A DNA stretch of 64,000 nt from an uncultured delta proteobacterium (GTDB lineage Bacteria > Desulfobacterota > WTBG01 > CAIYCZ01 > CAIRTM01). The stretch is taken from contig CAWDSQ010000007.1 of the NCBI GenBank assembly GCA_963804955.1, forward strand, positions 32,001 to 96,000, read 5' to 3'. Below the pieces are notes generated by a model. That model had not been told where the DNA came from. It ran no database searches and saw nothing but the letters and a program-made list of their open reading frames with translations. The position numbers and the translations under genes are program-made. Shown here in pieces: positions 681-41,068 of the stretch; the first letter of the stretch is position 1, and each line of letters begins with the position of its first letter.

Positions 681-806
681 GCGATGATCTCCTCTTGGGC
701 ATTTACGGGGCATTTACGGGACGCTGTTGATTGAGTTGATTTAGTTATTTCGCAGCCAAGAAATGTCGGTTTTCGTGCCTCAACCCTACACATCTACGGT
801 CTTCAT

Positions 807-4814: not shown

Positions 4815-4838
4815 CCATTCCAGGAGAAGGAACAGGCT

Positions 4839-6314
4839 ATGGCAGTTGATAAATCAAAACTTGAAAAAATCGCGGGCAAAAAAAATGTCCTTGATGATGA
4901 AGCGACCCTGAAGCGGTTCTCCCAGGATCAAAGCTTTGTTTCTCCCCGTCGGCCCGATGTCGTCGTGTATGTCGAAAAGGTGGACCAGGTGCAGCAAATC
5001 GTACGGCTTGCCAATGAAACACTCACGCCCATCGTACCCTTCAGCTCCGGGCTCACCCTGCGCGGGGCGACCATACCCGATCAGGGCGGCATCATACTGA
5101 ACATGTCCAGGATGAATAAGATCATTGAAATCGATGAAGAAAACCTGTTTGCCATGATCGAGCCCGGCGTCACCTATAAGCAGCTGCAGGACGAGCTTGC
5201 CCCCAAAGGTTTCAAGGTGATGGCGCCCTTCGGCGCGCCGGCAGACCGGTCGGTTCTCACCAGCTATCTTGAACGCGATCCGGTCATGGCGGCCCCTTGC
5301 TTTGAAGACGGCAATTTTCTTATTATGGATACTGAAATCGTGCTGCCGGACGGCGAACTGTTCCACACCGGCAACTGGGCATCGGGTGGTCGTCCCGGCG
5401 CGCCAGCAGGCCCGATCCGCAATAATGTTTTCCGCCTCTGGACCGCAGCGCAGGGCACCTTCGGCATTATGACCAAAATGGTCGTACAGATTTCCTATAT
5501 CCCCGAGTCGCGCAAAATTTTCTTTATACCCTTTAAGGCGCTTGCCGATGCCATTGAGCCGATGAAACTCATCCAGCGCAGGGAAATCGGCGCGGAAAGC
5601 TTTATCATCAACAGCTTCAACCTCGCAGCGCTGCTCGCAGACAGCTGGAAGATCCCTGCCACATTCCCGGCAAAGCCTGCTGATACAAAGGAATTTGAGC
5701 AGATCAGAAAAGCGCTGCCTGACTGGACAATGGCTGTGGTGATCAATGGCCCCAAACGCCGCACCGATGAAAAAATCGCCTATGAGGCGGAGGCGCTGCG
5801 GGAAATCTGCGATACGCTGAACCTGGAACTGCTTGAAAGCCTGCCCAATGTAACCGGCGCGGAAAATATCATTGAAACAGAGCTGCTGCGGCCCTGGGGA
5901 GTACTGCGGAAATTCAACTACAAGGGCTCAGTGCATGACCTTACCTTTAAGGCGCCCATCACTAAGGTTGCCGAACTTGAAAAAATGCTGAACAAGCTTG
6001 CGGCAGTTGCCGGCTATCCGGCAGCCGATATCGGCAGCTACATCATGCCCCTTGAGCGCGGACGTGCCATACACTGCGAACTTGACCTGCACTGCCCGGC
6101 CGCAGATGGCCCTGAGCGCGAGATGGTAAAAAAACTCTGGCAGCAGGCTTCAGCCGAGCTTATAAATAACGGCGCCTACTTTGACCGGCCCTACGGCATA
6201 TGGGCGCCGCTCATGTACAGCCGCGCGGCAGAGTATTCGCAGATGCTTAAAAAACTAAAGGCGGAGACCGATCCGAATAATATTCTCAATCCCGGCAAGC
6301 TCTGCTTTGCATAA
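4839..6314 (+). CDS. FAD-binding oxidoreductase (VAO/PCMH-like fold)
   Basis: PDVVV, GGIILNMSRMNKII, EPGVTY, QGTFGI, DPNNILNPGK. Confidence 0.88.
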   Translation: MAVDKSKLEKIAGKKNVLDDEATLKRFSQDQSFVSPRRPDVVVYVEKVDQVQQIVRLANETLTPIVPFSSGLTLRGATIPDQGGIILNMSRMNKIIEIDEENLFAMIEPGVTYKQLQDELAPKGFKVMAPFGAPADRSVLTSYLERDPVMAAPCFEDGNFLIMDTEIVLPDGELFHTGNWASGGRPGAPAGPIRNNVFRLWTAAQGTFGIMTKMVVQISYIPESRKIFFIPFKALADAIEPMKLIQRREIGAESFIINSFNLAALLADSWKIPATFPAKPADTKEFEQIRKALPDWTMAVVINGPKRRTDEKIAYEAEALREICDTLNLELLESLPNVTGAENIIETELLRPWGVLRKFNYKGSVHDLTFKAPITKVAELEKMLNKLAAVAGYPAADIGSYIMPLERGRAIHCELDLHCPAADGPEREMVKKLWQQASAELINNGAYFDRPYGIWAPLMYSRAAEYSQMLKKLKAETDPNNILNPGKLCFA

Positions 6315-6352
6315 AATGCGTGAAACTCATTTTTCAGGAGGTTTAAACAAAT

Positions 6353-7681
6353 ATGACCGATTATGATGTAATAGTTATTGGTTGCGGCCCTGCCGGCATG
6401 ATGGCAGTCGGCGAGCTGACAAAGCGCGGCATAAAGGTGCTGGGCGTCGACAAAAAACCCAAACTTGATGTAAATATCCGCACCGCATCCGGGTACTGCT
6501 TTCTTGACCAGCCTTTCAACAAGGAGTTTATCAAGTGCATTCCCAAGGGCGATGTAACCGACCTGGAATATACCGACGGCGGCTTTACTGCAACCTATTC
6601 GGCGCCGATGCAGGGTATTTTTCACTCTCATATGTTTTCCGACACGGGCCGCCACTGGCAGGCTACAACGACCAAAAAGCCGTTTTACCACTTGTTTGAG
6701 CCGGCCAGATGCCATGCAGATCGCTATGCCTGGGCAAAATCAAAGGGCGCCGAGTTCATGGCCGGCACCTCGTTTATCAACTGCACACAAACCCCCGGAT
6801 CGGTTGAAGTGCTGCTGCGCAAGGATGGAAAGAACAAAACCCTTACCTGCAAGAAGCTCATTGCCGCAGACGGCCTCGTCTCCCGCGTGGCCAAGGTGAC
6901 GGGCGTTAACGAAAAACGGCTCAATTTCGGCATGAAAGGCCCGACAATCGAATATGAGATGGACGGCGTTGAAATGCCCTATGACCGCGGCGATTCCTTT
7001 TTCTTCGGCTCGAAAAACTTCGGCGGCATGGCAGGCGGCGTCATCATGGTCCCCAGCCCTCACGGCGAAAAGTGCTACCGCGCTGAGACCATGTCCATGC
7101 TTCCGGCATCAAGCGCGACCGATATCATTGAGTATTTCATTCACAAAAGCCCGTTTGCCAGCTGGTTTAAAAATGTCAAAATCCTGGAGATCAGCGGTGT
7201 TATCGTCGAATTCCTCGGCCCCCTGAACGTGCCCAAGCTCGGCAATATACTCTATGTCGGCGATTCCGCGGCCTATGGCGAGTGCCTGTATCAGTGCGCT
7301 GTCATGTGCGGCTATAAGAGCGCCCAGTGCGTTGAAATGGAGCTGAAGGGCCAGAGTGGCTATGACGAATACTGCGAATGGTGGGCCGACCATTTCGAGT
7401 GGGTGCGCAATCCCAAGCGCATGGCTGACTATACCAAGCGCGTGCTCTTCCCCCGCTTCTTCACGGTGCAGGAACTGGACTTCCTGTTTGACCTTTCCGA
7501 GAAGAACCGCATCGTCGTGGAAGAAGTCTCGGCAACCCCGTACACCTTCACACAGATGATCATGGAGCAGTTTATGGCCATGCCGGAAGTCCCCCAGAAG
7601 CTCAGGGAGCGCATGCAGTTCATTATCGATGCCGACATGTCCCAGGTTGCCGCAGTGGTCGGCCAGGTGCAGAAGTCCTAA
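6353..7681 (+). CDS. NAD(P)/FAD-dependent oxidoreductase, geranylgeranyl-reductase-like
   Basis: DVIVIGCGPAG Rossmann motif, IAADG, VGDSA; AGGAGG RBS. Confidence 0.8.
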   Translation: MTDYDVIVIGCGPAGMMAVGELTKRGIKVLGVDKKPKLDVNIRTASGYCFLDQPFNKEFIKCIPKGDVTDLEYTDGGFTATYSAPMQGIFHSHMFSDTGRHWQATTTKKPFYHLFEPARCHADRYAWAKSKGAEFMAGTSFINCTQTPGSVEVLLRKDGKNKTLTCKKLIAADGLVSRVAKVTGVNEKRLNFGMKGPTIEYEMDGVEMPYDRGDSFFFGSKNFGGMAGGVIMVPSPHGEKCYRAETMSMLPASSATDIIEYFIHKSPFASWFKNVKILEISGVIVEFLGPLNVPKLGNILYVGDSAAYGECLYQCAVMCGYKSAQCVEMELKGQSGYDEYCEWWADHFEWVRNPKRMADYTKRVLFPRFFTVQELDFLFDLSEKNRIVVEEVSATPYTFTQMIMEQFMAMPEVPQKLRERMQFIIDADMSQVAAVVGQVQKS

Positions 7682-14739: not shown

Positions 14740-15968
14740 TACTTCTTTACCGGCATGCTTCCAGTTGCTCAAGCACTCAGCTGATCATCATTCCATGCAC
14801 CCAGGTGCACTACGGGAATTGAAGAAGGCACTCCTGACCGGTCCACCATGGAACGGAATTTCATGCTCGCTGTGAATGCTCTCCGCGCTTATGTTGACGG
14901 CGAAACCAGTATCTTTTTGACGCCGCCGGCAAGTAGCCCCTGCACAGCGGCTGTATGTCCGGCTGCTTGAATTCCATATAGGCAAGAGCGATATGAGCTC
15001 TTTTAAAGCCTTCGGCCGCAAGCAGCTTTTTTGTTTCCAGCCGGAATGAGTTCTCCTGCTCGGGCTGTGTTTTAAATAAGGCGTCCCAGGATGCGGGCTG
15101 GCCATGGGCACCAGCAGAATGCCGATATCGGATTTGTCCATATCCACTGAGGCCCTGAGTGCGCGCTCGACGTTCATGCGCATCAGCCGCTGGAGTTTTT
15201 AGCGTATCCGTGAACGCACAGCTTCACGCCGTGTTTTTCAGGCTGCAGAGCTCGATCTCTTTCGGCCCATAGCGGAGTGATCCGAATCGGTAAGCCAGAC
15301 ATTGCGAAGTACACGCCGGTCAAGCCCCCTCATGTAAGGCGCGGGCTGCCGCGACATCGGCATGCTGGGCGTCGTTCGGAAGCGGCGATATGCACACGGG
15401 AATTGAGGATCGCACTTTTTCCGGTATAAAGCCTCGATCCGCTCCATGGATGCGTATTTCATGCGGTTATGAAAGCTCTCGGCGCTTAAATTGACCGGAT
15501 TCAACCAGGACTTTCTTGAAAAAAAACGGCCTGAAGGGCCAGGCACAAACGGCACGCCGGTTTCATCCGATTTCATGTCGGATGGCATGATTTCCATGCC
15601 GGCAAAAGCGCCATCGTACGTCTCTAAGGCTCGCCGTGGGTAAAACAGATGATGGCTGTATGCCCAGGCGATGTTGAGCGCACCGGCGCGGGCTGTTTTT
15701 CAAATACCGGCGTCCCAGGTACACGGGCAGGCGATAAGCTACCAGCGAATGCCGCACATCAGCAGAGCCCGAGTCCATAGTCACCTGCGGACCTTGATTG
15801 CAAGCTCGCACGATCATGCGCATCAGACGTCAGGAATTTTTGAGCGTATCGGAAACGCACAGCCGGCACGCCATATTGTTCAGGCTGCAATGCCTCGATA
15901 TCGTACTGCGAGACCCCTGCGACAAGGGAATAAACGCTGCAATCATACCGTATACAAAACCCCGACAT
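14740..15968 (-). CDS. Ferrochelatase-family (class II chelatase-like) protein, heavily frameshifted; start uncertain
   Basis: Manual frame-joining gives GHTAIICFTHGEP-ETY (~15665-15615), MKYASM, GILLV-HGQPASWDALFKTQPEQENSFR (~15125-15040), NISAESIHSEHEIP and LGAWNDD, in the order expected for ferrochelatase-like proteins. Confidence 0.65.
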
Positions 15969-16047
15969 TTAAAAGAATAAGGCGGTCAGTCGCCGTCCTG
16001 TACGGCGACTAAAGCGCCGCTCCTCCGTTAACATTCATAAATCGGTA

Positions 16048-16069
16048 GGGGCTCAAAATTTTGAGCCCC
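16048..16069. repeat. Perfect palindrome, GTAG-headed (REP-like)
   Basis: gta-GGGGCTCAAAATTTTGAGCCCC; a second hairpin AGTCGCCGT/ACGGCGACT lies at 15988-16010. Confidence 0.6.
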
Positions 16070-16082
16070 GGCATTGGAACCG

Positions 16083-16762
16083 TTACAATTTTATAAGAAA
16101 CTGCTCCGGCCTCTTGGACCGCGGCGCGCGCAACGACTTCAAAGGTGCGGTTCTTCATGGCCGGGTTCTCCAGGGCATCAACGCACACGCGGGCAATCTG
16201 CTCGCGCTTCACGCGGCCCGTGATCTTGCCGCCCTCGCCGAAGGCGACTTCATCAGGACTTTTACCTTCGTGTACCCGCCGGGCCGTATGATCGTGTAAT
16301 CGATCCCGCAGGACTGAATGAATGCCTCGCTCTTGTCCCTTGTGACTCAGCACGCTCATCATTGGCCATCTATACATGGGCGATACGGCATCGCGGCTGT
16401 TGCCAACCCCGACGGATGAAATGACAACGATCTGCTTGAGGCCCTTTGCCTTGGCGGCCCGCGCAAGGTTCTGGTTACCCATATTGTCGATCTTGTCGTT
16501 TTCCGACCCCTGAAGGGCTTTTTGGAGCCGATGGCGCTTATCATGTAGTGCGCGCCTTCCATGGCCTTCTCAAGAACGGCACAGAGGTAAGATCCCCTCA
16601 GCGCACGGTCTACACCCGTGAGGCCGCAGGTTGGAGCCGAGTCAAACGGCGGCACCATGAGGGCCCGCACCTTGTAGCCCCGCTTCAAAAGCTCCTGCAC
16701 CACCAGCCTGGCCTGTCCCTGCCGTGGCGCCTGCAACCACTACTGTTTTTTCACCGAGCCAT
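16083..16762 (-). CDS. Atypical SDR / NAD(P)H-binding protein, frameshifted
   Basis: Joined frames: KTVVVAGAT..G..RLVVQELLKRGYKVRAL, ISAIGS, DNMGNQNLARAAK..G..QIVVISSVG, REQIARVCV..NRTFEV; GGAGG RBS. Confidence 0.85.
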
Positions 16763-16858: not shown

Positions 16859-18586
16859 TTACATCCCAACTCTTTTCTGAACTCCTCCACCGTCGCGCCA
16901 ATGACAGTTATCCCGTGATTTGCCGCGGGCATAATCCTCGGTGCCGGAAACTGCGGCCTGACGGAAGGGCGACGGCACAAGCTCGAGCATGCCCTTTGCC
17001 TCGTCATCCCACGGCATGGTGAAGGTGAGGCTTGAGATCGGCACTTCTTCATCTTCTTCTGCGGCCGGGGGAGGTACTGCGTCATCGCCAAAGACAGCCG
17101 AAAACTTGGCCTTGAACTTGGTTGGCGTAAACTTATCGGATACTTCCCGAAAGATTGTTACCGTCACATTAGTGCCCCGCTCTTTGGCGATCTGCTCGGC
17201 AACGGAATGCAGCTTTTTTAGGGCTGTAGCACGCACGAAGTGCGGTATCATCTCGCCAACCTTTATCATGGCCTGCTCTGCCGCGATGTCCCAGGGCACT
17301 GAGCCCGTGGAGATGGAGCCCATCATATCGCCCTTGGTCTCAAGGAATATGCCCATATAGACCTCGTTCACCAGGCCCTCAACAAGGTACTTGGCGCCCA
17401 TAAAGCCCATAAACGGGCAGTTCTCCGAGCTCAAATACCCGATGGTGGGAATATCCGAGAAAATAAAATTTTTGAACCCCTCATCCATGCTCACTTTCTT
17501 ATCATAGAAGTTGCCATAGATTACCATGGGGCCTTTTTCAACGAACTTGTCGCGCTTCTCCTCAATGGTGGGGCATATGAGCACATCATCGCACAGGGCC
17601 TCGAGGCGCTTTGCCGCATCGTGGTTGCTCACCGCAGTCATGACGATGCCAACGCCCACCTCTTTATTCAAAAACTCGCTGATGCCCACGGCATAGGTGT
17701 TGGCATTTTCAAGTGACAATGCCGCGGTCATTTCAAAGGTGACGGCAAAGACCATATTTGACGAAATGAACTCGAAGGCATTGGCCATCGTTTCTTTCAG
17801 ATACGGCGTCGCATCGATCTTGAAAAAACCGGCGACGCTCTCAAGCCATGCCGCAGAATTCCCGAACCCGATGGGGATAATGTCCGCCATATATGGAATG
17901 CCGAAGCGTTTCTCCATTTCCTGAGCCACCCGCACACCGCTGTCATAGGGGTAGATGCAGAGATTGAGCTCTGCCTGCGCAGCATTTTTAATCTGGCCGA
18001 TGGTTGCGCCTGCAGTGTAGACGCAGTTGACGGTGACGCCGATGCCGGCGAGCATCCGCGTCAGCTCATACACGTCGGCGCGCCAGTTGAAGGTCGAAAA
18101 CGTTGGGCCGATGATGTTGACCGACCGGGGGACTTTTTTGACCGCCGGGTCGACAAGATCAAGAATGCGGATAAAGGCAGTCTCCTTGCCCTCCACAAGC
18201 GAACCGCCGATGGGCGGGTGGATAATGACAGTGTCTTTAAAGCCAACCTTCTTCACAATGCCTTCCACATCGTCGCGCGTCACCTCGACAGTGGGAGCGG
18301 TCACGATTAAAATTGCGCCGGGCTTTTTTGCCGCGATCTTCTCGAGCGTGGTCTCCATGCGGTCTTCGGCGCCCTGCATGATGTTGGCATACGAGAGGTT
18401 GGTCGAATACAGCTCGCAGGACCAGTCATTGACCAGGGCATTCACATGCTGGTTTATGTAGCAGCCCGGGGGCGAATGAAAGATGGTGTCCGCGCCCTTG
18501 ATGCCCAGGCAGGTCCAGAGAGCACCCTCAAAAGCCGAGGGAGTGTGCAGCTCCTGCATTTTGAAATCTTTTTGTGTCTCATTCAT
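16859..18586 (-). CDS. Nitrogenase component-1-like subunit (BchZ/BchB-like) with two C-terminal PCP_red domains
   Basis: HSPPGC, STNL, RSVNIIGP, AQAELN, PIG, PFMGFMGA; C-terminal PWD..A...P.FVR and PWDDEA..L..VP..FR repeats; indels near the 3' end. Confidence 0.85.
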   Translation of the reverse strand: MNETQKDFKMQELHTPSAFEGALWTCLGIKGADTIFHSPPGCYINQHVNALVNDWSCELYSTNLSYANIMQGAEDRMETTLEKIAAKKPGAILIVTAPTVEVTRDDVEGIVKKVGFKDTVIIHPPIGGSLVEGKETAFIRILDLVDPAVKKVPRSVNIIGPTFSTFNWRADVYELTRMLAGIGVTVNCVYTAGATIGQIKNAAQAELNLCIYPYDSGVRVAQEMEKRFGIPYMADIIPIGFGNSAAWLESVAGFFKIDATPYLKETMANAFEFISSNMVFAVTFEMTAALSLENANTYAVGISEFLNKEVGVGIVMTAVSNHDAAKRLEALCDDVLICPTIEEKRDKFVEKGPMVIYGNFYDKKVSMDEGFKNFIFSDIPTIGYLSSENCPFMGFMGAKYLVEGLVNEVYMGIFLETKGDMMGSISTGSVPWDIAAEQAMIKVGEMIPHFVRATALKKLHSVAEQIAKERGTNVTVTIFREVSDKFTPTKFKAKFSAVFGDDAVPPPAAEEDEEVPISSLTFTMPWDDEAKGMLELVPSPFRQAAVSGTEDYARGKSRDNCHWRDGGGVQKRVGM

Positions 18587-18587
18587 G

Positions 18588-19824
18588 TCAGCCTCCATAT
18601 TTCCGCACAAGGCCCTGCCAGGTTTCATAGACGGGCTTGTGCATGTTTTTGAAGAAATTAGTGCCAAGATCGATTGCATAATCGTAGCCGTACTCACACA
18701 GGTACAGCATGTTGATGAACGTGGGCACGAGGCGCGACACGCACTCGGGCTGTGCTTGAAATTCAACCGACACGGCCGTGGGCTTAATCCTGTCGATTAC
18801 GTCGCCGATCAGGTCGAAATCCTCCTCGATAAAGGTAACGCCGTAGCGCTCCTGCATGAGCTTTTTTTCCTGCTGGTAAAATTTATTCTTCATGGACGGC
18901 ACCACAAAAACCTCGGCGCCGAACTCGGCAAAAATCTTGCCGACTGACACTTCGTTTGCCGGTCCTGCCACCATGAGCATGCGGACCTTCTCTTTGGCAA
19001 AACGCTCCCGGATTTTCTCAAGCTCCGGCTTCACGCGCTTTTCCTCTTCATCCACAAGGTCATGCAGCTTTTGATTGTTCATCCTGTCGGCAATAGCGCG
19101 CAGGAAGTTTGACGTGCCCTGAATGCCCGTGGGAATCTCGATAAACTCAACCTCGCCGCCGAAGTTTTCATTCAGGTGCTTGCAGGTAAGCCAGGGTGTT
19201 ATGTGAATGGGATAAGTATTTTTCCGCGCAGACGATCTTAGCCATGCTGTCGATATGGGGCGTGGGAAAGACGAAGTACGGGATATCGGCCTTTTTGAAA
19301 AACATCTCAAGAGAGGCAAGATTGCCCGCGTCCTGGCCCGTGCGGCCGACAATGCCGATAGAGCCGGGCACCTTCTCCTGTTTCTCAAACGTGTCGAGCA
19401 CCGCAACCCAGGCGGCATCAGAGCCCAGGGGCATGGAGCGCGGATAGTTGAAACCGGTAAGGCAGGTGCTCACTTTCAGCTCCGGGATTTCCTTTTTGAG
19501 CTCTATGATAACGCCTTCAATATCCTCGCCGATAAGCTGGGGAATGCAGGTATTGATGATGACGATGACTTTAGGGTGATATTTGTTATAAAGGTTCTTG
19601 ACCTGCAGCTTTAGGCCTGCCTCGCCGCCGAAAATGACGTCGCTTTTGTTGACAAGCGTACCGGCAGTCACAAGCTGCGCCGGTCGGCATGACATGGAGC
19701 CCACCTGGTTCTGGTACGAGCAGGGCTGGGGCCCGTGCAGAAGCGGTATGACGCCTTCGATTTTGCCCAGGCTTGCCAGGGCCTGAATCGTGGAGCAGCA
19801 GTGTTCATAGTGTTTCAGGGGCAT
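18588..19824 (-). CDS. Nitrogenase component-1-like subunit (BchY/BchN/NifD-like), one frameshift near 19220
   Basis: HCCS, LHGPQPC, DVIFGGE, NTCIPQLIGEDI; the ORFs 19168-19824 and 18588-19418 join at an A-run; AGGAGG RBS; abuts the next gene's ATG. Confidence 0.88.
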
Positions 19825-19995
19825 AGGGACCTCCTAATGTAAATTCCTGATTTTGGATTGCCGTATTTTGCATCCCGCAGATGTATTCCTTTTTTTAGCG
19901 AAATCCGCAGCCCACCCTGCATGTTGTCGACCGATTTCAACCAGTGAAGAGCTTCGGCTAATCAAATAATTTTTATTCTGCGTCCTGCACTTGCT

Positions 19996-20848
19996 TCAGT
20001 GCTTCCTTCCCGCAGCCTGGGCCCACCAGGCATGGCAGCTCTTCAAAAGTGAACGACGCGGGCACGGAAAGTTCCTTGTTGTTCCAGATCGACTCTGACA
20101 ACTGCCGAAACGCCTCGCACTCGGCTGTATCTGGCGCATGCTGGAAGAGTGTCAGGCCCTTGCCGGAGCACTCTTTTATCTTTTCGCTGTAGGGAATAAA
20201 TCCGACAAGATGGCTGCCAAGCTTTCGGGAAAATTCATCCAGAATGGTCTGCTCATCCTTAAGCTCCCGGCCATTGCCGATAATGCCGCCGAGCCTGACG
20301 CCCGAACGGGAATTGAAGCGCGATACAGCCTTGCAAATATTGGAGGCGGCAAATAAAACCTCCAGCTCGCCGCTGCTCACGATATAGACCTCGTCGGCAT
20401 GGCCTTCGCGAATAGGCATGGAGAAACCGCCGCACACCACGTCACCGAGCACGTCATAGAGAACCACATCGAGCTTCAGAACCTCCATCACATTGAGATG
20501 CTTGAGCGCCTCTATGGCCTCCACCACCCCCTTGCCCCCGCAGCCAAGCCCGGGGTCAGGCCCGCCGCTTTCCGCACAGAAAATCTTGCCGGAGCAGGTA
20601 TCGTTGAGAGGGCTTTCAAACACCACCTCGTCCATGGTGAGGGATTTCACCTCAAAGTTCTTCTTCCGCAGAATCCCCAGCACTGTCTGGGGCATTTTGC
20701 CTTTCAGCAGCAGACGCGTGCTGTCATGCTTGGGGTCGCAGCCCACATGCAGAACCCTTAATCCTTTGGCCGCAAGGGCAAAAGTTATATGGGATGACAC
20801 CATGGACTTGCCGATACCTCCCTTACCGTAAATAGCTATCTGGCGCAT
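19996..20848 (-). CDS. Nitrogenase iron protein-like ATPase (NifH/BchL/BchX family), copy 2
   Basis: YGKGGIGKS, GCDPKHDS, ESGGPDPGLGCGGKG, DVLGDVVCGGF; an indel near the 3' end makes the likely true terminus ...AWWAQAAGRKH*. Confidence 0.93.
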
Positions 20849-21052: not shown

Positions 21053-21892
21053 CTAATTTATATACGGCAGCCACCAGTCATAGAGCTCTTCAAACTCAAG
21101 GGTATTCGGAATGACAAGATTTTTATTGTCAAACACCTTCTGCCCGATCTCGCGGTAGAGATTCGCCTCCGGCGAATCCGGCGCGCATTGAAACACGGTT
21201 TCGCCATCGCCGCCGCATTGCTTCACGGTCTGGCTGTAGGGAATGACGCCCACGATCTGCGTGCCGATCTTTTGAGCAAAATCAGTCACCATCTGAAGTT
21301 CATTCTTCACGCGTCGCAGGTTAACGATGAGCCCGCCGAGCTTTGAGCCGGCCCGAGCGTCAAAGCGCTTGATTGCCTTTGACACATTGCTGACTTGATA
21401 GAGCGCCTCGAACTCGCCGCTGGTCACCACATAGGTTTCCTGCGCAAAGCCCTGGCGTATGGGCAGGGAAAAACCGCCGCAGACGACATCGCCCAGGATG
21501 TCATAAATAACGACATCGATATCAAGGGCCTTGAATATACTGAGTTTTTTTATCGTGTCGATGGCTTCAACCACGCCCTTGCCGCCGCAGCCCACCCCCG
21601 GCTCGGGCCCGCCGCTTTCAGCGCAGTAGATTTTGCCGCCGTTTTCAAACTGCAGGGGCGATGTGGTGATGATGTCCTCGGGAGAAAGGTCGTCGTACAT
21701 GAAATCATTTTTGCGCAGCACGTCAAGAATCGTGGGCGGAAAGTCAGGCAGCAGAAGGTAGGTGCTGTCATTTTTCGGGCTGCAGCCCATCTGCAGCACC
21801 TTCATTCCCCGCTCGGCAAAAGTGTAGGATAGATGGGATGCAACCGTCGACTTCCCTATGCCGCCTTTACCGTAAAGTGCTATCTGCCGCAT
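21053..21892 (-). CDS. Nitrogenase iron protein-like ATPase (NifH/BchL/BchX family), copy 1
   Basis: YGKGGIGKST, GCSPKNDS, ESGGPEPGVGCGGKG, DILGDVVCGGF; AAGGAGG RBS. Confidence 0.93.
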   Translation of the reverse strand: MRQIALYGKGGIGKSTVASHLSYTFAERGMKVLQMGCSPKNDSTYLLLPDFPPTILDVLRKNDFMYDDLSPEDIITTSPLQFENGGKIYCAESGGPEPGVGCGGKGVVEAIDTIKKLSIFKALDIDVVIYDILGDVVCGGFSLPIRQGFAQETYVVTSGEFEALYQVSNVSKAIKRFDARAGSKLGGLIVNLRRVKNELQMVTDFAQKIGTQIVGVIPYSQTVKQCGGDGETVFQCAPDSPEANLYREIGQKVFDNKNLVIPNTLEFEELYDWWLPYIN

Positions 21893-21910: not shown

Positions 21911-22384
21911 TTATAATGGACAGCGACATCGTTTCATAATTGAGCTTGCGGCGCGCAGCGATTTCAGCAGGCGCGTACGCTGCTTTTCGTCAAGACAACC
22001 AAAAATATTCATCAGCTCCTGCTTACGCGCCTTTAAAATACTGCCGTGAGCTTTTTTCCCGCTGTCTGTCATCTGCACTTTAACGACCCGCCGGTCACCC
22101 GTGTCGCGAATGCGCTCGACAAAACCCTCGTCAACGAGCCTGTCGACGACCTCTGTCATGCAGGGCATTTTCACATTGGCGATTTTGCACAGCTCGCCCA
22201 TGCTGTAGCGCCGGTCTTCATGAAAGGCCGACATAGCCTTGAGCTGCGAGCTGTTGACCGGGAACCCCATCAGCCCCTTGCTGCTCATAACCATTTGCTG
22301 AAAAAGGTCCGTAAAAAGATTACGGATCTCGATTAAATGCATTTCTATTTCGGTAAGCTCACTGAGTTGCTTGCTGTCCCCCAC
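21911..22384 (-). CDS. MarR family transcriptional regulator
   Basis: MTEVVDRLVDEGFVERIRDTGDRRVVKVQMTDSG wing motif. Confidence 0.92.
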   Translation of the reverse strand: MGDSKQLSELTEIEMHLIEIRNLFTDLFQQMVMSSKGLMGFPVNSSQLKAMSAFHEDRRYSMGELCKIANVKMPCMTEVVDRLVDEGFVERIRDTGDRRVVKVQMTDSGKKAHGSILKARKQELMNIFGCLDEKQRTRLLKSLRAASSIMKRCRCPL

Positions 22385-22747: not shown

Positions 22748-23218
22748 CTAGGGCTTGGTTGTCTTCTTTAATATGCCCGAAACTTTTCGCAAGGCCGTGA
22801 GCAGTTCATCCTGATCCTTCTGTGAAAGTTTGCCAAAAAGATTGCCCATTTCCTCACGGCGGCGGCCTATGAACTTGTCGTGAATCTTTTTGCCCGCATC
22901 CGTCAGCGCCACTTTGACCACGCGGCGGTCCTTGGTGTCGCGCACCCGCTTGAGCAAGCCCTCGGACTCGAGCCGATCTACCATCTCGGTCATGCTGGGC
23001 ATCTTCACCAAAGCGTTCCTGCTCAGCTCCGTCATACTGTACTCGCGGTCTTCGTGAAATGCGGTAAGCGCCTTCATCTGCGAAAGCGTTACGGACATAT
23101 CGCTTATACGGCGGCTGCCCTTGACCATTTTGTTGAATATCTGCACGAAAAGGTTGCGCACCTCTATCATGTGTTCTTCAATCTCAGTGACTTTTTCCAT
23201 AAAAACCTTATTATCCAT
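22748..23218 (-). CDS. MarR family transcriptional regulator (paralog)
   Basis: MTEMVDRLESEGLLKRVRDTKDRRVVKVALTDAG. Confidence 0.92.
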   Translation of the reverse strand: MDNKVFMEKVTEIEEHMIEVRNLFVQIFNKMVKGSRRISDMSVTLSQMKALTAFHEDREYSMTELSRNALVKMPSMTEMVDRLESEGLLKRVRDTKDRRVVKVALTDAGKKIHDKFIGRRREEMGNLFGKLSQKDQDELLTALRKVSGILKKTTKP

Positions 23219-23257
23219 ATGCGGCCTCATTTTAGAATTTTTAATATTTCATTTCCT

Positions 23258-27669: not shown

Positions 27670-29364
27670 CTATATACAGGTTGATGCTGTTTTTATCTTT
27701 TCGTTTTTACAATTTCGATTGAACTTTTTTTTGACTATAGATTTCATAAAGGCAGCCGGATGCCTGAGTAAACCGGGTTGGAGGTTGTCATCATCGCTGT
27801 ATTGAGCGTTATAATAATAACTGCTGTAGTGATAATTATAATAGCTGCTTCTATCACGAGGCGCCTTATTGAAAACGACGCCTAAAATATAGGCTCCTGA
27901 ACGCTCCAGTTGCTCTTTAGCGTGCTTCAGATCTGCAAATCGTGTTTTGCCCACCTCAACGACCAGCACAACGCCATCAACCCTGTTGGCCAGCACGGAA
28001 GCATCCGTCAGTGCCGCAATTGGCGGGGAGTCAAGCAGGATAATATCCTTTGTTCCTGCAATAGAGTCCAGCAACTGCGCCATTTTGTTCGACCCCAGCA
28101 GTTCAGCCGGATTAAGAGGAAGGGGTCCGGCGCTCAGCAGACTCAGGTTGGGAGCATCTGTTGGGCGCAATGCATTTTCAAGATTAAAAGACTCCTGCAA
28201 CAGGAGAGTTGAGAGGCCGCGCCTGTTTGATTTATCGAAATGCTTGTGCAGAGAGGGGCGATGCATATCGCAATCAAGCAGGACTACCGTTTTGCCGGCC
28301 TGGGCGAAAACAGTGGCGAGGTTTGCAGCCACAAACGATTTTCCCTCCTGTGCATTCAGGCTCGTTATGAGAATTCTGCGAACAGGCCTGTCGACGCCGG
28401 CAAACATAATATTGGACCGAAGAAATCGGAACGCCTCGGTAATGGGCGCACGAGGCTTTTTATGCGCGATCGGTTTGGCCTCTGTCTCCTTGCTTGAAAG
28501 AAGAACAGCTACTCCTATCAGAGGTAGTTGCAGCTCTGAGGTTATCTGTTCAGCATTTTTAATGGAATCGTCCAGGTAATCAATTATAAAAATCAAAACA
28601 GAACCGAGCAGCAAACCGAACAAAATCCCCACCGTCACACTTCGGGCAATGCGGGGGCGAATCGGAAACAGAGGCACACTTGCCTTGTCTACCACAATCA
28701 CATTGTTCAGAGTTTGGGCTTCAACCAGGCGTTGACTCTCATAACTTTGCACCATGCGGGATCGGCTATCCCGCAAACGGATCAAATCAGATTCAAGAGA
28801 GGCCCGCTTGTTTAATGCCAAAGGATCGTTATTGCTAGACAAAGCAGTAATCTGAGACTCCATCTGCTCAATCTGTTTATCAAGCGCAGCAATTTCTCTG
28901 GCCAGGCTTTTCTTTGATTCAACAAAACGGCTCGACTGTGTGGAATTATTATAGGCGATAAACACTTCCGGAACAAGGTTGCAGAGGGCTGCCGCACGCA
29001 CCGGGTCCGTATCCTCGATGCTCAACCTTATAAACTGCGTATCCTTCACCAGTTGTACCTGAAGCATCCAGGCTAGCGTTTGGGCATCAAACGGACACTT
29101 CAAACGGGCAACGACCTGAGAGAGTATCGCTTCTGACTGCATCAATTGAACATAGGTGCGCGCCAGCCGCTCACTGAGGGCAAGCGAATTTAAATCAACG
29201 CCCTTCGCGCTTGAAGCTTCGCTGATCAATATTGTACTGACAGCCTGAAACACAGGCTCCTGCATGGAACTATTCACATATGCAAAGCCGCCGCTTAAAG
29301 CCGCACAAAACAGTACAAGCCACCACCATCGCAAAAAAAGGTAGAAATACCCTTTAAGCTCCAT
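27670..29364 (-). CDS. Polysaccharide chain-length regulator / tyrosine autokinase (Wzc/CpsCD-like)
   Basis: Two TM segments, EAFRFLR, EGKS, LDCDMHRP, LDSPP, Tyr-rich tail YYNYHYSSYYY. Confidence 0.92.
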   Translation of the reverse strand: MELKGYFYLFLRWWWLVLFCAALSGGFAYVNSSMQEPVFQAVSTILISEASSAKGVDLNSLALSERLARTYVQLMQSEAILSQVVARLKCPFDAQTLAWMLQVQLVKDTQFIRLSIEDTDPVRAAALCNLVPEVFIAYNNSTQSSRFVESKKSLAREIAALDKQIEQMESQITALSSNNDPLALNKRASLESDLIRLRDSRSRMVQSYESQRLVEAQTLNNVIVVDKASVPLFPIRPRIARSVTVGILFGLLLGSVLIFIIDYLDDSIKNAEQITSELQLPLIGVAVLLSSKETEAKPIAHKKPRAPITEAFRFLRSNIMFAGVDRPVRRILITSLNAQEGKSFVAANLATVFAQAGKTVVLLDCDMHRPSLHKHFDKSNRRGLSTLLLQESFNLENALRPTDAPNLSLLSAGPLPLNPAELLGSNKMAQLLDSIAGTKDIILLDSPPIAALTDASVLANRVDGVVLVVEVGKTRFADLKHAKEQLERSGAYILGVVFNKAPRDRSSYYNYHYSSYYYNAQYSDDDNLQPGLLRHPAAFMKSIVKKKFNRNCKNEKIKTASTCI

Positions 29365-29577
29365 TCCAGGTCCTTTCACAGCCAGGCAATAGTTCTATCG
29401 ACACCATATAGCCTTCCGGACATAATCCATATAAAAAAACAGAAAAAACAAATTTTGATCAGCAAATGTATTGAATATCTATATATAGCTATAACCATAT
29501 TTGGTCAACTCTAATCTTGTGTACTGTAAAATGCTCTGGATTCATGCTCCGCGCTAAAACCCGACACCCTTCTGCGA

Positions 29578-30156
29578 TCAGTGCGTTACCCCTTCTCTTT
29601 TGACAACTTTAAGAAAGGTCTGTAGGATAATCTTCATATCCAGCAGCATCGAGTGGTGCCTCAGATAATACTCATCGAACGCGACCTTCACCGGGATAGG
29701 CAATTCGTCCCGGCCATTGATCTGTGCCCAGCCGGTTAAGCCAGGAGTGAGCCGGTGTACCCCCTTCTCGGTACGCAGCGCTACCAGGTCGTCCTGATTA
29801 AAAAGGGCCGGTCGGGGGCCGACAATGCTCATTTCTCCACAGAGAATGCTCCAGAGTTGCGGCAGTTCGTCAAGGCTCGACTTGCGCAAAAATTTGCCGA
29901 CCGGCGTCAGCCAGAGGTCGGGATCGTCCAGAAGATGGGTTGCCACTGCCGGCGTGTCAATCCTCATGGTGCGGAACTTCGGCATCCTGAAGATGCGGTT
30001 CTCACGCCCCACACGCTTAGACCAGTACAGGACCGGCCCCGGCGAGGTGAGCCGGATCAGCAGGGCAATAATCAGCATGGGAAAGGCTAAGGCAATACAG
30101 GCCAGCAGTGAACAGACAAAATCAAAAAGGCGTTTCATCGGTTTAGTCAAGCTCAT
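29578..30156 (-). CDS. Bacterial sugar transferase (small phosphoglycosyl transferase)
   Basis: KRLFD, KFRTM, LDELPQL, GEMSIVGPRP, PGLTGWAQINGR. Confidence 0.93.
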   Translation of the reverse strand: MSLTKPMKRLFDFVCSLLACIALAFPMLIIALLIRLTSPGPVLYWSKRVGRENRIFRMPKFRTMRIDTPAVATHLLDDPDLWLTPVGKFLRKSSLDELPQLWSILCGEMSIVGPRPALFNQDDLVALRTEKGVHRLTPGLTGWAQINGRDELPIPVKVAFDEYYLRHHSMLLDMKIILQTFLKVVKREGVTH

Positions 30157-31106
30157 CTATGGTTCAAAAACCAGTCAGCAGTCTCAGCAAGCCCCTGCGC
30201 CATGCTAAGCGGAGGCTCCCAGTTCAACTCCCTCCGGATCTTCCCACTGTCCACCATTAGGGATCCAGAAATACGTTCAACAGAGGCACCCTTACCGGTC
30301 ATTACGCCAGCCAAACGCATGAGCATCAGCGGCAGAGGGAAAAGACGCGCAGGCCGGCCAAGGGCAGCAGCGATTTGTCTCACCAGTTCCGGTGTGGATA
30401 TAGCATCTCCGTCGCTGACCAGATAGGTGTTGCCCGCTGCCCGCTGATGTATCGAGCAGACAACTATCGCATCCGCCAGATTCCCCAGCCCGATCAGACT
30501 CCGGCGATTTCGAATGCATCCCAGAGGCAGGGGAATACCCCGAACTACCATTTCCAGCAGTCGCCTGAAATTAGCCTTAACGCCGGGGCCGTAGACCAGG
30601 GGAGGCCGAATAATGACCACCTCAAGTCCTGTTTCCCTCTCCACCCGCCGCAGCGCGTCCTCCGCTTCCCGCTTGCTGATGCTATACGGATCCTCCGGCG
30701 ACGGTGGGTCATCTTCCGTATACAGTGCCGGACGGCCTTCACCGTTCACCTTTGCAGAGCTCAAAAATACCAGTCTTCGGACACCCGCGCTCGCGGCCTG
30801 CCGTGCCAGCCGCTCAGTGCCTGACACATTGGCCATCCTGTACTCGGCCAGGGGGTCGACGGCATGCTCATTCATAACATGGACCCTGGCTGCCAAATGC
30901 ACCACTATATCTATGCCGCGCAAGGCATCTGCATATTCCGCAGTATTTGACAGTGGCTGCACCAAGGCTTTTTCAACCGCGGAAGGCAGATGGCTGGTCT
31001 GCTCGCCTGCCAGCACCGCCGCGCGCACATTGAAATTTTCATGGCCCATTCGTTTGAGAAGAGCCGTTCCGACAAAGCCGGTCGCACCGGTAACAAGCAC
31101 GTTCAT
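30153..31106 (-). CDS. NAD-dependent epimerase/dehydratase (UDP-sugar 4-epimerase/reductase)
   Basis: GATGFVG, HLAARVH, YSISK, RPPLVYGPG. Confidence 0.9.
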   Translation of the reverse strand: MNVLVTGATGFVGTALLKRMGHENFNVRAAVLAGEQTSHLPSAVEKALVQPLSNTAEYADALRGIDIVVHLAARVHVMNEHAVDPLAEYRMANVSGTERLARQAASAGVRRLVFLSSAKVNGEGRPALYTEDDPPSPEDPYSISKREAEDALRRVERETGLEVVIIRPPLVYGPGVKANFRRLLEMVVRGIPLPLGCIRNRRSLIGLGNLADAIVVCSIHQRAAGNTYLVSDGDAISTPELVRQIAAALGRPARLFPLPLMLMRLAGVMTGKGASVERISGSLMVDSGKIRRELNWEPPLSMAQGLAETADWFLNHR

Positions 31107-31852
31107 ACAGGCCTCTGGAATAGTTGCGCCACTTTACGAAAATACTTTGAGTAGACTTTCAGCATGTTCGTTGAAATACCATTTTCGGCACAAGCCCGCA
31201 AAATCTCCCGGTTCAGTATCCAGTTGCTCCGCAGTCCACGCGTGCTGACCCCACCGGTACGCATCCGAACAATTACCTCAGGCAGATAGGCATACCGAAC
31301 GCGGTGACGGGCCAGGAAGCGGGCCGTCAGTTCGTAATCCGCAGCAATCCGGTAATCGGTTCGAAACAGACCAAAACGCTCATAGATCTCACGACGGACA
31401 AAAAAGGTCGGATGGGGCGGCATCCACCCCCATGCAAACTTTTCCGGTGTGAAGCCTGCACCCACATAGTAGCGCACCACCCTATCCAGATTGTCCGGCC
31501 GCACATACACCAGATCCGCAAACAGGGCATCGGCGCCGCTTTCCCGGAACACGCGCAGAACCTTCTCAAGCACCTGCGGCCCGGCGTATAAATCATCGGA
31601 GTTGAGGATGCCAACGATATCGCCGGTTGCGAGTCTGATACCCTTGTTCATAGCCTCATAGATGCCGTGATCAGGTTCGGAAAGAATACGGGCAGAGGGG
31701 GAGATGCGGCGCACGATCTCAAGGGTGTTGTCCGTGGATGCACCATCAATAATAATGTGCTCGGCCGAAGATGTCTGTTCATCAACACTGCGCAGGCAGT
31801 CTGCGATCGTCGCTGCGGAATTGAAGGTGGCTGTGATGATGGAGATATCCAC
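31103..31852 (-). CDS. Glycosyltransferase family 2 (WcaE-like)
   Basis: ISIITATFN, IDGASTD, AMNKG, LNSDD, PPHP, ADYE; GTG start. Confidence 0.9.
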   Translation of the reverse strand: MDISIITATFNSAATIADCLRSVDEQTSSAEHIIIDGASTDNTLEIVRRISPSARILSEPDHGIYEAMNKGIRLATGDIVGILNSDDLYAGPQVLEKVLRVFRESGADALFADLVYVRPDNLDRVVRYYVGAGFTPEKFAWGWMPPHPTFFVRREIYERFGLFRTDYRIAADYELTARFLARHRVRYAYLPEVIVRMRTGGVSTRGLRSNWILNREILRACAENGISTNMLKVYSKYFRKVAQLFQRPV

Positions 31853-31853
31853 C

Positions 31854-33611: not shown

Positions 33612-33887
33612 GAATATCTCCTAAAATTGAAAATAAATACATTGATTGACTGGTTTCAAAAATATAAAATCAAAATAAATCATCATGCTCAATGCAGCTA
33701 TCTCCGATACACGGAAAACGATTGGACTGCTGAATAGTGCAAGACGCGCTTGTTTGAGGTTATACGATGCCACCATACCGGCTATATAAAAAAACGATAA
33801 GATAAAAATTTTCCCGAATGGAAGTTGCAGATATGACTCAGGGTGAATAACTTTGCCTGACAAAAGGCACCGCCGCTTTTCCCCCGG

Positions 33888-35108
33888 TTACTCCTTTAAA
33901 TACGGCTGAATTATCTGCTTTCCTGTAATTACACCCCGAAACAACGCAATATTATCTTTTAACACCTGATCATCCTCTGCAGCGTTCCTTGCATACTTCC
34001 GTGCACGAAGCCGTTGCTCCACCCGTGCCGCCTTATTCAAAGCCGTCTGTGCCTCTATAACTGCGCAAAACCCTTCCTCCGCCTCCAAGGGCAGATCCCA
34101 CCCCACACCCTGAGCCTCCAGATTCCGCCATGGCGTCTTGTCGCTGATCAAAACTGGTAAGCCCGCGGCCAGGGCTTCGAAGATGACATGTCCATAGTTT
34201 TCTCCTCTTGTCGGTAAAAAGAACAAATCGTACCCGGACAGCGTATCCAGAACTTTATCGTGCGCAATTCTCCCATGATACTGGACGACCACATGCTTCG
34301 GCAAATCATGTATAAGTTGTTGGCAGTGCTGCCAGTAGGCGGCATCTTCCGCCACGCCATAAATGTCAAACCTAAGCGGCGTCTTGACTTTAGCAAGCAC
34401 CCGCAAGGCATAATCCAGATTCTTCATTTCACAAATACGGGACAGGAAGCACACCCGCAAAGGATCATGCTGACAGCGGTCGTTTTGATCTTCGAAGTCC
34501 GACATTGACGCTGCTGCGCCCGGCATGTCAGGCGCAAGAACGATAGCAAGAACGATTCTCTTGGCTATTTCTCCCATGGCCCGACGGACATCTTCGGCCT
34601 CATACACGCTGGATGCCTGCCAGGTAATGTCTTTATAAAGACTAACCGTATTTACAATACCCAGATAGGGTTTCTTTTTCCAGGCCTTTAGCGCCAGCGC
34701 CCCTCGGGCAAGTGACCCGCGAGGCGCAAGAATCGTCGGCCGCTTTGGTACAAGCCTCAGCAAGCGTGCCAAAAGTGGTAACTGAGTAAAAACCGGATCA
34801 AAGAAGCTATTCAAATACAGAACATCGTGCGGGATCTCCCTGAGAAGGCGAACCCAAAAAAGCAGCGACTGATTATGTGGCGAGCAGTAAAACACTTTCG
34901 CCTTGCCGACCTGATTCCAGCCATCAACGACCACATTCGAATAGGACTCCTTATCTTTAAAGTCTCTATCGGCTGTGACGATGCGGAAATCGAATTCATC
35001 GCTGAGCAACGACACCATGTTGGCAACCGTCTGAACCGGTCCACCTGCTTTGAACCCGGGCAGGTACCAGGGAATGGAAGTCAGTATTATTGGTTTAGTC
35101 ATTGTCAC
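33888..35108 (-). CDS. Glycosyltransferase family 4
   Basis: PGFKAGGP, ENYGHVIFEALAAGLPV. Confidence 0.9.
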   Translation of the reverse strand: MTMTKPIILTSIPWYLPGFKAGGPVQTVANMVSLLSDEFDFRIVTADRDFKDKESYSNVVVDGWNQVGKAKVFYCSPHNQSLLFWVRLLREIPHDVLYLNSFFDPVFTQLPLLARLLRLVPKRPTILAPRGSLARGALALKAWKKKPYLGIVNTVSLYKDITWQASSVYEAEDVRRAMGEIAKRIVLAIVLAPDMPGAAASMSDFEDQNDRCQHDPLRVCFLSRICEMKNLDYALRVLAKVKTPLRFDIYGVAEDAAYWQHCQQLIHDLPKHVVVQYHGRIAHDKVLDTLSGYDLFFLPTRGENYGHVIFEALAAGLPVLISDKTPWRNLEAQGVGWDLPLEAEEGFCAVIEAQTALNKAARVEQRLRARKYARNAAEDDQVLKDNIALFRGVITGKQIIQPYLKE

Positions 35109-40930: not shown

Positions 40931-41068
40931 GGCAGACAGATTCCCCCTTTTTTTATCTTCAACTGTTTACAATTCGCAAAAAAATCTCATATTTGAATGT
41001 TATGTCAACACGTCTAAAAAGCAACTAATTATACATGTGCTTGTTCCCTTGACGACTTGATAATAAAA

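Follow-up and report, generated by a model that had tools for sequence, protein, structure and literature searches.

We analyzed a stretch of 64,000 nucleotides (the window) from an uncultured delta proteobacterium of the Desulfobacterota (positions 32,001 to 96,000 of contig CAWDSQ010000007.1, assembly GCA_963804955.1). The host genome, which we call G000, is 87% complete, with 4.26 Mb spread over 36 contigs. (Labels such as G000, L021, and P0014 are our own handles for genomes, loci, and proteins.) The window contains an operon that appears to encode a [4Fe-4S] reductase of the nitrogenase-like (NFL) family which reaches no curated family cut-off. The NFL family is small, and its members are reductases driven by ATP.

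The genes of the operon and the two that follow it are all on the minus strand, in the order MarR, MarR, H1, H2, subunit A, subunit B, NmrA-like, and class II chelatase-like. H1 (21053..21892, 279 amino acids, Fer4_NifH E = 2e-86) and H2 (19973..20848, 291 amino acids, Fer4_NifH E = 7.2e-91) are the upstream and downstream paralogs of a NifH-like Fe protein. Subunit A (18588..19824) is NifD/NifE-like, and its gene is in two frames. Residues 1-203, with C10, C35, C46, and C93, are encoded by 19216..19824 and match positions 1-198 of the 399 positions of Oxidored_nitro (E = 7e-31). Residues 204-411 and the stop codon are at 18588..19214 and match Oxidored_nitro positions 208-343. (When we ran tblastn with an intact ortholog of 411 amino acids, residues 177-411 were covered in the second frame.) Subunit B (16859..18586, 575 amino acids) is BchB/BchZ-like, with Oxidored_nitro (E = 1.7e-57) and PCP_red (E = 1.1e-8) domains and a single interface cysteine, Cys42. 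Its ATG (18586) is one base past the stop codon of A.

Cluster ligands and family placement

A recent review (North and Shafaat 2026, PMC13474568) describes how NFL enzymes hold their interface clusters. In the P-cluster of nitrogenase and in methylthio-alkane reductase (MAR), each subunit provides three cysteines (3+3). The dark-operative protochlorophyllide reductase (DPOR) has three cysteines and an aspartate of BchB at the position of NifK-Cys95. Mutagenesis of the chlorophyllide reductase (COR) points to three cysteines of BchY and one of BchZ, also at the NifK-Cys95 position. CfbD uses 2+2 cysteines, isethionate reductase (ISR) is predicted to use 1+3, and Group VI NFL proteins keep no more than four of the P-cluster's six cysteines. 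This agrees with the patterns for nitrogenase, DPOR, and COR that were given in a preliminary description of this DNA, which had proposed that A and B have the 3+1 pattern of COR.

The motifs behind that proposal are all present. On the minus strand, A has HCC at 19795-19803 (residues 8-10), HGPQPC at 19720-19737 (residues 30-35), and NTCIP at 19540-19554 (residues 91-95), while B has TPSAF at 18530-18544 (residues 15-19), HSPPGC at 18461-18478 (residues 37-42), and TAPT at 18290-18301 (residues 96-99). (The range given for the pattern, 18440-19824, spans A plus ~49 residues at the start of B, and TAPT lies outside it.) In HMMER alignments with NifK, NifE, and NifD, C10 (the second cysteine of HCC), C35, and C93 of A line up with all three P-cluster cysteines. 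Cys42 of B, counting from the ATG (it is C38 in the numbering of our alignment A1), aligns to position 36 of BchB/ChlB, with "hsppgc" in B and "hgpqgc" in 3aet_B. In ChlB (2xdq_B), an aspartate ("haplgd") is opposite Cys42.

A MAFFT alignment with proteins that NCBIfam labels as BchB (P0067 and P0127) or BchZ (P0133) placed the cysteine of B the same way. At the three P-cluster positions, BchB has none-Asp-Cys (P0067 at 733 bits and P0127 at 642 bits), and BchZ has none-Cys-none (P0133, 806 bits on TIGR02014). B has none-Cys-none, with serine at the NifK-Cys70 position and proline at the NifK-Cys153 position, and therefore has the pattern of BchZ. So HSPPGC does align with the aspartate of BchB and the cysteine of BchZ, and B has no further cysteines at P-cluster positions. 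Altogether, 4 of the 6 P-cluster cysteines are present (3/3 in A and 1/3 in B).

These cysteines are conserved. For A, we collected 121 proteins (the query, P0153, and 120 listed relatives) and dropped two because of their lengths (368 and 559 amino acids). C10, C35, and C93 are each kept in all 119 of the remaining proteins. For B, all 17 relatives have the single ligand cysteine, and none of the 17 has a cysteine at either of the other two positions. This suggests one [4Fe-4S] cluster at the A/B interface with only cysteines as ligands.

Several observations weigh against a strict 3+1 arrangement. Cys46 of A (in SMSCRP, 19681-19698, residues 43-48) is invariant (119/119) and is not at a known position for a cluster ligand. 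C9 of A, which is beside the ligand C10, is a cysteine in 101 of the 119 proteins. B has a second invariant cysteine, C206, and a nearly invariant one, C328 (both in A1 numbering, n = 17). These additional cysteines of A and B could alter the count of ligands, and they are our chief caveat. Cys46 lies in a loop between the second cluster cysteine and a conserved FGGE motif, and the predicted structure of A has low confidence at residues 33-63, which span it (pLDDT < 50). The matching stretch of NifD presumably runs towards the cofactor pocket.

None of the four proteins reaches the cut-off of a curated model. B scored 148.9 bits on the BchB model (cut-off 490) and 114.7 bits on BchZ (cut-off 529). 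H1 and H2 scored 300.5 and 296.2 bits on nifH (cut-off 394), 297.4 and 294.7 bits on CfbC (cut-off 402), 207.7 and 217.9 bits on BchL (cut-off 345), and 176.1 and 183.2 bits on BchX (cut-off 331.2). For the intact ortholog of A, the best model was NifE, at 90 bits versus a cut-off of 505. The BchY model did not match the ortholog (at E ≤ 1e-5) or the pieces of A (at E ≤ 1e-3).

By several approaches, B is most similar to the chlorophyll reductases. Among 1.84 billion cluster representatives, 15 proteins matched B at E ≤ 1e-30. The full-length matches were at 870, 468, and 400 bits (P0001-P0003, which belong to the same family), followed by matches at ~130 bits. In a tree with 59 rows, the B family forms a clade with 100% support, within a clade with 97% support that also holds BchZ and BchB, an unlabeled clade of seven rows, and three unlabeled proteins (P0014, P0015, and P0030). 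These three are ~505 amino acids long, are 26-30% identical to B, and share its cysteine pattern. B is nested in neither BchB nor BchZ. The best hit for B in PDB was BchB (E = 7e-19). We also compared the predicted structure of B (pLDDT 78.8) to known structures using Foldseek: BchB/ChlB were the best matches (TMt of 0.80-0.83 at 3.2-3.8 Å, across the catalytic core), while NifK, AnfK, and VnfK were at 0.66-0.76. Looking up B in the ESM Atlas gave BchZ/BchB clusters only (0.91) and nothing beyond what HMMER had found.

The other components have different relatives. The closest solved relatives of A are NifE and MarD, and BchN is at 27 bits. H1's best match in PDB is 9fmg_D (244 bits), which is the Fe-protein chain in an entry for a MAR complex; NifH is at ~225 bits and BchL is at ~160 bits. 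H1 and H2 are 52% identical, and the upstream and downstream copies from 12 loci form two orthologous clades (12 + 12 rows) that are separated by a branch with 100% support. H1 has the P-loop and both cluster-cysteine motifs. Among these rows, the P-loop and the two cluster-cysteine patterns matched in all of the Fe proteins from Desulfobacterota and Spirochaetota, and four gammaproteobacterial Fe proteins missed one strict pattern each.

Because B is nearest to BchB/BchZ while A, H1, and H2 are nearest to NifE, MarD, or MarH, the enzyme looks like a mosaic, with a chlorophyll-reductase-like B and with NifE/MarD/MarH-like A and Fe proteins. Two aspects of this placement count against the function that we propose below: A and the Fe proteins are nearer to the sulfur-metabolism/maturase branch (NifE, MarD, and MarH) than to BchN, BchY, BchL, or BchX, and the predicted structure of A (pLDDT 77.6) does not discriminate, as it is about equally similar to MarD, NifK, NifD, NifE, and BchN (TM ~0.7). 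The term COR-like, which the preliminary description used for the ligand pattern, is apt for that pattern and for B, but A is not BchY-like and the Fe proteins are not BchX-like. In other words, the term is right for the cluster site and wrong for membership.

We also asked if this locus could encode a nitrogenase. The preliminary description reported no motifs for binding the FeMo-co, and this held up when we compared A to 9d9u_A (MarD) and 9spz_A. In these profile alignments, A has an insertion or gap, or else valine or isoleucine, at the equivalent of Cys275 of NifD, and it has leucine at the position of His442. Around the position of the FeMo-co cysteine (residues 204-213 of A) there is no invariant cysteine; column 204 has a cysteine in 54 of 119 proteins. 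In the 87% complete genome G000, we found no match to nifB (TIGR01290), and PF00148 matched at this locus only, so that nifEN or a second nifDK-like locus was not found there. H1 and H2 are the only NifH-family genes above the cut-off in G000. Similarly, a 3.49-Mb chromosome record from a metagenome-assembled genome (MAG) of the Chromatiales carries the operon and no other PF00148 gene. The missing FeMo-co ligands, the failure to find nifB in G000, and the single Oxidored_nitro locus support the earlier claim that this system does not fix nitrogen. The product of these genes almost certainly reduces an organic molecule instead.

Conservation of the operon and the candidate substrate

The core of the operon (MarR, H1, H2, A, and B) recurs in uncultured Desulfobacterota (MAGs labeled as "delta proteobacterium" or Thermodesulfobacteriota), in one single amplified genome (SAG) of the Spirochaetota, and in MAGs from the Gammaproteobacteria/Chromatiales. 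Our genome collection has 32 loci from this A/B family. Within the phylum of the window, the catalytic part of B was found (at E ≤ 1e-60) in 8 of 401 sampled genomes, and all 8 are from the window's class. Metagenomes contain 161 clusters of the A family, many of them labeled "nitrogenase molybdenum-iron protein alpha/beta subunit". The A/B family is restricted to uncultured anaerobes. Our literature searches for a description of the family turned up only general papers on NFL enzymes, Group VI, ferredoxin-dependent bilin reductases (FDBR), and phototrophy.

Two genes for MarR-family regulators are at the head of the window's operon. One is directly upstream of H1 (21911..22384, Pfam MarR E = 1.5e-10), and the other is more distal (22748..23230, E = 2.1e-11). 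Most of the related loci that we scanned also have a MarR gene at the head of the operon. The gammaproteobacterial/Chromatiales loci have no match to MarR, and their B proteins end after one PCP_red-like domain.

The C-terminal end of the window's B (16859-17300, residues ~430-575) has two PCP_red-like helical domains with an acidic linker between them. The gammaproteobacterial B proteins (508 amino acids) and P0002 and P0003 (484-502 amino acids) end after the first of these. A PCP_red domain is also found at the C terminus of a transporter from the major facilitator superfamily (MFS) that is encoded elsewhere in G000 (contig C24, L057:6536-8158, plus strand; MFS_1 E = 2.9e-32, PCP_red E = 4.3e-8). 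Its neighbors are a short-chain dehydrogenase/reductase (SDR), TetR, and a PNPOx-like protein. A second, broken copy of this gene is near L058 (C24:70062-70460), and at least 10 related genomes have open frames of 523-551 amino acids that match the C-terminal PCP_red stretch of B. The MFS-PCP_red protein may be a carrier for tetrapyrroles.

Some genomes have two or three A/B pairs, but just one H1-H2 pair in the stretches that we examined. For example, L013 (G017:C8) and L014 (G018:C3) have two further tandem A/B pairs, ~50% identical to the window's, whose neighbors are genes for MarR, a CbiX/ferrochelatase-like protein, a flavoprotein of the geranylgeranyl-reductase family, and a TPR protein. 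There is no NifH-like gene in these two stretches, and both genomes carry a single H1-H2-A-B operon at another place.

In the window, two more genes follow B. The first encodes an NmrA-like NAD(P)H-binding protein (16009..16736, minus strand); it is frameshifted, and NAD_binding_10 matches the 3' fragment. In L016, an intact NmrA-like homolog of 228 amino acids is directly downstream of B. The second is the class II chelatase-like gene (CbiX/ferrochelatase fold), which we located in all three frames at ~14781..15902 (minus strand) using tblastn with an intact protein of 403 amino acids from the same genus. That protein matches both CbiX and Ferrochelatase, and its CfbA score (42.8 bits) is below the cut-off of 120.

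We examined the neighbors of the operon at 20 loci, made up of the window and 19 more but excluding L042 and L045. Tetrapyrrole-related neighbors are present at 9 of the 20 loci, in at least 5 different arrangements. CbiX/ferrochelatase-like genes are found in the window, L021, L013, L014 (two), and L020 (two), while L015 (two), L016, and L020 have Fe_bilin_red-like genes. L011 has HemL-HemB-CobA/HemD-HemC, and L012 has a fragment of TP_methylase. In L035 and L049, B12-radical-SAM genes, whose best or second-best model is BchE, are directly upstream of paralogous A/B pairs. (Overall, 3 of the 20 loci have a radical-SAM gene, in L035, L049, and a fragment in L017, and none matched among the window's open reading frames that we scanned around the operon.) Other neighbors that recur are NmrA-like reductases, flavoproteins of the geranylgeranyl-reductase family, and two kinds of metal transporter (FeoB and a P-type ATPase).

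Since 9 of the 20 loci have chelatase-like, bilin-reductase-like, BchE-like, or hem neighbors, the context points to a tetrapyrrole as the substrate. We consider this a somewhat better than even bet. We cannot be more certain because the other 11 loci lack such neighbors, the loci are related to each other (so these counts are not independent), and several of the neighbors' matches fall below curated cut-offs: 43-80 bits versus 120 for CfbA, and 170-196 bits versus 481 for BchE. Some of the Fe_bilin_red matches, at 28-35 bits, are near the cut-off of 31. Given those 11 loci, we rejected the idea that tetrapyrrole-related neighbors are universal.

If the substrate is not a tetrapyrrole, then the same kind of [4Fe-4S] reductase might act on an organosulfur compound (as MAR and ISR do), an isoprenoid, a hopanoid, a quinone, or an aromatic compound. 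This would fit the similarity of H1 to the Fe-protein chain of MAR and of A to NifE and MarD, as well as the loci without tetrapyrrole-related neighbors. It could also account for the recurrent flavoproteins of the geranylgeranyl-reductase family, SDRs, FAD_binding_4 proteins, and an export set of DUF1302, DUF1329, and MMPL proteins, and the radical-SAM neighbors score equally on HpnJ and BchE. On the other hand, B is BchB/BchZ-like in its sequence, its place in the tree, and its fold, and among the families that are named by the tools we used, the PCP_red lid is a domain of the tetrapyrrole reductases BchB and BchZ. Also, hem genes and genes for chelatases and bilin-reductase-like proteins reappear in multiple arrangements that are unrelated to each other, and the review gives MAR P- and L-type clusters and ISR the reverse (1+3) pattern. 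We view a non-tetrapyrrole substrate as unlikely, but it deserves serious attention.

Further genes in the window, at 3099-7681 on the plus strand, are 9-13 kb away from the operon. They encode two FAD_binding_4 proteins and a flavoprotein of the geranylgeranyl-reductase family (64.5 bits on TIGR02032, cut-off 158.8). In L052 and L021, genes like these adjoin the operon, and in L013 and L014 they adjoin the chelatase.

Broken reading frames

Gene A consists of two overlapping open reading frames in different frames, at 19168-19824 and 18588-19418. The first reads ...CAEKY up to 19216 and the second picks up YPIHITPWL at 19214, so the single base at 19215 (minus strand) is surplus. A relative from the same genus reads CAEKYYPIHITPWL across this site, unbroken, and a short-read contig (run X4) that covers 19193-19389 aligned to the window with one gap. 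More broadly, comparing the window with short-read contigs from related populations shows at least 12 single-base indels across 5.2 kb, within the broken genes. In the NmrA-like gene, these are at 16268, 16505/16509, 16711, 16716, and 16723. The last ~14 residues of B are garbled by two compensating indels within ~50 bases, after which the final Gly-Met-stop is regained.

Among the 15 copies of A from outside the window, 12 are intact (411-430 amino acids). The broken ones (in L021, and both copies in L014) are broken at other places. Every broken copy, the window's included, comes from an assembly of few contigs (~36, ~50, or ~60), while in assemblies with at least 100 contigs, most copies of A are intact.

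The split in gene A is most likely an error in sequencing or assembly rather than a sign of a dead gene, because the neighboring genes are broken as well, the end of B has compensating indels, the short-read contigs show indels, 12 of the 15 other copies are intact, and the broken copies are in few-contig assemblies. Against this, there is a small chance that the extra base at 19215 is real in this strain. More generally, the locus could be a decaying cluster of pseudogenes in this genome, with real frameshifts in A, the end of B, the NmrA-like gene, and the chelatase-like gene. That four adjacent genes are broken, and that A is broken in 3 of the 15 other copies as well, would be expected if the genes were decaying. 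However, compensating indels that restore the last residues of B are typical of read errors, and the concentration of broken copies in few-contig assemblies points the same way. H1, H2, and the rest of the 1.7-kb gene B are open, and overlapping pairs of frames on the same strand occur elsewhere in the window too. We consider decay to be improbable.

The window is rich in indels in other regions, with overlapping pairs of same-strand frames at, for example, 30153-33611 and 35465-38076. The gene calls for G000, and the estimate that it is 87% complete, are probably affected by indels. As for the rest of the window, a cluster for polysaccharide synthesis (27670-43564 on the minus strand) encodes Wzz/tyrosine-kinase-like proteins, a sugar transferase, glycosyltransferases, a carbamoyltransferase, GDP-mannose dehydratase, and an O-antigen-ligase-like protein. 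After it, at 44000-60000, comes a stretch with low G+C (0.36-0.42, versus ~0.50-0.55 elsewhere), which may be an acquired region. The N-terminal domain of a GmrSD-type restriction endonuclease is encoded at 120-713 (minus strand).

Known NFL enzymes and the proposed function

COR (BchX/BchYZ, Group V of the NFL enzymes) has the same proposed ligation, with three cysteines from the NifD-like subunit and one from the NifK-like subunit at NifK-Cys95, and the alignment to the BchZ model takes in almost all of B, its C-terminal domain included. But our proteins are below the cut-offs for BchX and BchZ, BchY is unmatched, and A is nearer to NifE and MarD. Also, COR has one Fe protein, while this locus has two paralogs, and B has an additional PCP_red-like domain and is in a separate clade. 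We found neither Photo_RC (PF00124) nor CobN/BchH (PF02514) in the 87% complete genome G000 (type I reaction centers were not searched for), and therefore place the enzyme outside of bacteriochlorophyll synthesis.

DPOR (BchL/BchNB) is the best match for B in both sequence and fold. It also has a C-terminal PCP_red domain and three cysteines on the partner subunit. DPOR differs in that the fourth ligand is an aspartate in BchB and a cysteine in B, and in that BchB has a cysteine at the NifK-Cys153 position where B has proline. Furthermore, A matches BchN only weakly, at 63-66 bits versus cut-offs of 324-420 (63.4 versus 420).

It is very improbable that the locus encodes a true ortholog of COR or DPOR for making (bacterio)chlorophyll, or that it encodes a cryptic nitrogenase. 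In favor of this, its parts go by nitrogenase or protochlorophyllide-reductase names in Pfam and in the source databases, and it has the 3+1 cysteines proposed for COR. But all of the equivalog models are far under their cut-offs (with BchY unmatched), B forms its own clade, Photo_RC and CobN/Mg-chelatase H were not found in G000, and neither were nifB or nifEN, and 4/6 P-cluster cysteines come with no FeMo-co ligands.

CfbCD, as covered in the review (PMC13474568), is an ATP-dependent NFL enzyme with one all-cysteine [4Fe-4S] cluster that reduces a metallo-tetrapyrrole. H1 and H2 score as high on CfbC as on nifH (below the cut-off in both cases), and the chelatases near the operon are most similar to the nickelochelatase CfbA, also below the cut-off. 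However, the review describes CfbD as homomeric, with a symmetric 2+2 site, while the enzyme here has two distinct subunits with 3+1, and the CfbD model scores just 38.9-44.5 bits (cut-off 268). MAR (Group IV-C) resembles this system in that the MAR entries 9fmg and 9d9u supply an Fe-protein chain and a D-like chain that are among the best solved relatives of H1 and A; it differs in keeping all six P-cluster cysteines and the cysteine and histidine of the L-cluster. ISR (Group IV-F), with one cysteine on D and three on K, is the mirror image of the enzyme here (both according to the review).

The nearest described group, going by description only, is Group VI (NflHDK), which is known from groundwater Elusimicrobia, Gracilibacteria, and Myxococcales (Meheust et al. 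2020, bioRxiv 10.1101/765248). According to that study and the review, the NifH of Group VI is the sister of Group V, the group lacks FeMo-co ligands and NifB, there are several copies per genome, its neighborhoods are rich in radical-SAM genes, and tetrapyrrole reduction is proposed from context. Compared with those descriptions, our family is alike in having at most 4/6 P-cluster cysteines, no FeMo-co ligands, and no NifB that we could find, as well as several copies per genome. B12-radical-SAM neighbors occur at some of its paralogous loci, and none matched around the window's operon. The family differs from Group VI in its hosts (here, Gammaproteobacteria, a SAG from the Spirochaetota, and a single class within the Desulfobacterota) and in its Fe proteins, which score nearer to NifH, MarH, and CfbC than to BchL or BchX. 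We speculate that P0014, P0015, and P0030, from the clade that includes B, might be Group VI proteins.

We propose that the locus encodes a two-component, ATP-driven NFL reductase. The paralogous Fe proteins H1 and H2 would pass electrons to a catalytic component of the A2B2 type. Its [4Fe-4S] cluster would be held by C10, C35, and C93 of A and Cys42 of B, as proposed for BchYZ. From the cluster, the electron would move to an organic substrate that is bound where nitrogenase has the FeMo-co and is capped by the PCP_red-type C-terminal helices of B, as in DPOR. The substrate would be a tetrapyrrole or a metallated tetrapyrrole, and reducing its C=C bond(s) would yield a cofactor or pigment. The MarR regulator presumably controls the operon. 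We infer the type of the cluster, the electron path, the class of the substrate, and the regulation, while the domain content, the positions and invariance of the ligands, the absence of FeMo-co ligands, the clade of B, and the structure of the operon are observations. For the entire proposal (an NFL reductase with a 3+1 [4Fe-4S] cluster and a tetrapyrrole-type substrate, no nitrogen fixation, and a sequencing error in A), we estimate a probability of about 60%.

A more elaborate version is tentative, and we would not bet on it. This might be a separate NFL group in which an obligate pair of Fe-protein paralogs (possibly a heterodimer) drives one or several COR-type A/B components. Together with the chelatases and the BchE-like and bilin-reductase-like enzymes, it would build a highly reduced (metallo)tetrapyrrole cofactor in anaerobes that are neither phototrophs nor methanogens. 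Cys46 of A would then be a proton donor in the pocket or an axial ligand.

These genes matter for surveys of diazotrophs. The preliminary description warned that the nifH-like genes would be false positives, and this is plausible for surveys that rely on Pfam or on names (JGI/IMG names the relatives of A "nitrogenase molybdenum-iron protein"), but the curated nifH cut-off of 394 bits rejects both H1 and H2 (296-300 bits). We also compared H1 and H2 to primer patterns. For the IGK3/DVV-type patterns, H2 has 0 and 1 mismatches and H1 has 1 and 2. The nifH1 forward pattern matches H2 with 2 mismatches, with no more matches in the window than expected by chance, and neither H1 nor H2 has a site for the nifH2 reverse pattern within 3 mismatches. 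The pseudo-nifH problem in general was reportedly described by Mise and colleagues in 2021. Genes like H1 and H2 can inflate counts of diazotrophs unless curated cut-offs or co-occurrence with nifD, nifK, and nifB are applied.

To our knowledge, every newly assigned member of the NFL enzymes has so far led to new chemistry (F430 synthesis, C-S bond cleavage, and isethionate reduction). We know of no enzyme besides COR for which an all-cysteine 3+1 site has been proposed, nor of a solved structure for COR. The family described here adds a clade of B proteins that adjoins the chlorophyll reductases and comes from bacteria that live neither by photosynthesis nor by making methane. It also contributes a duplicated substrate-lid domain on B, as well as two conserved Fe-protein paralogs; a pair of that kind is not reported in the excerpted parts of PMC13474568. 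If these enzymes do act on tetrapyrroles, then bacteria of anoxic sediments would hold a cofactor or pigment that is not yet known.

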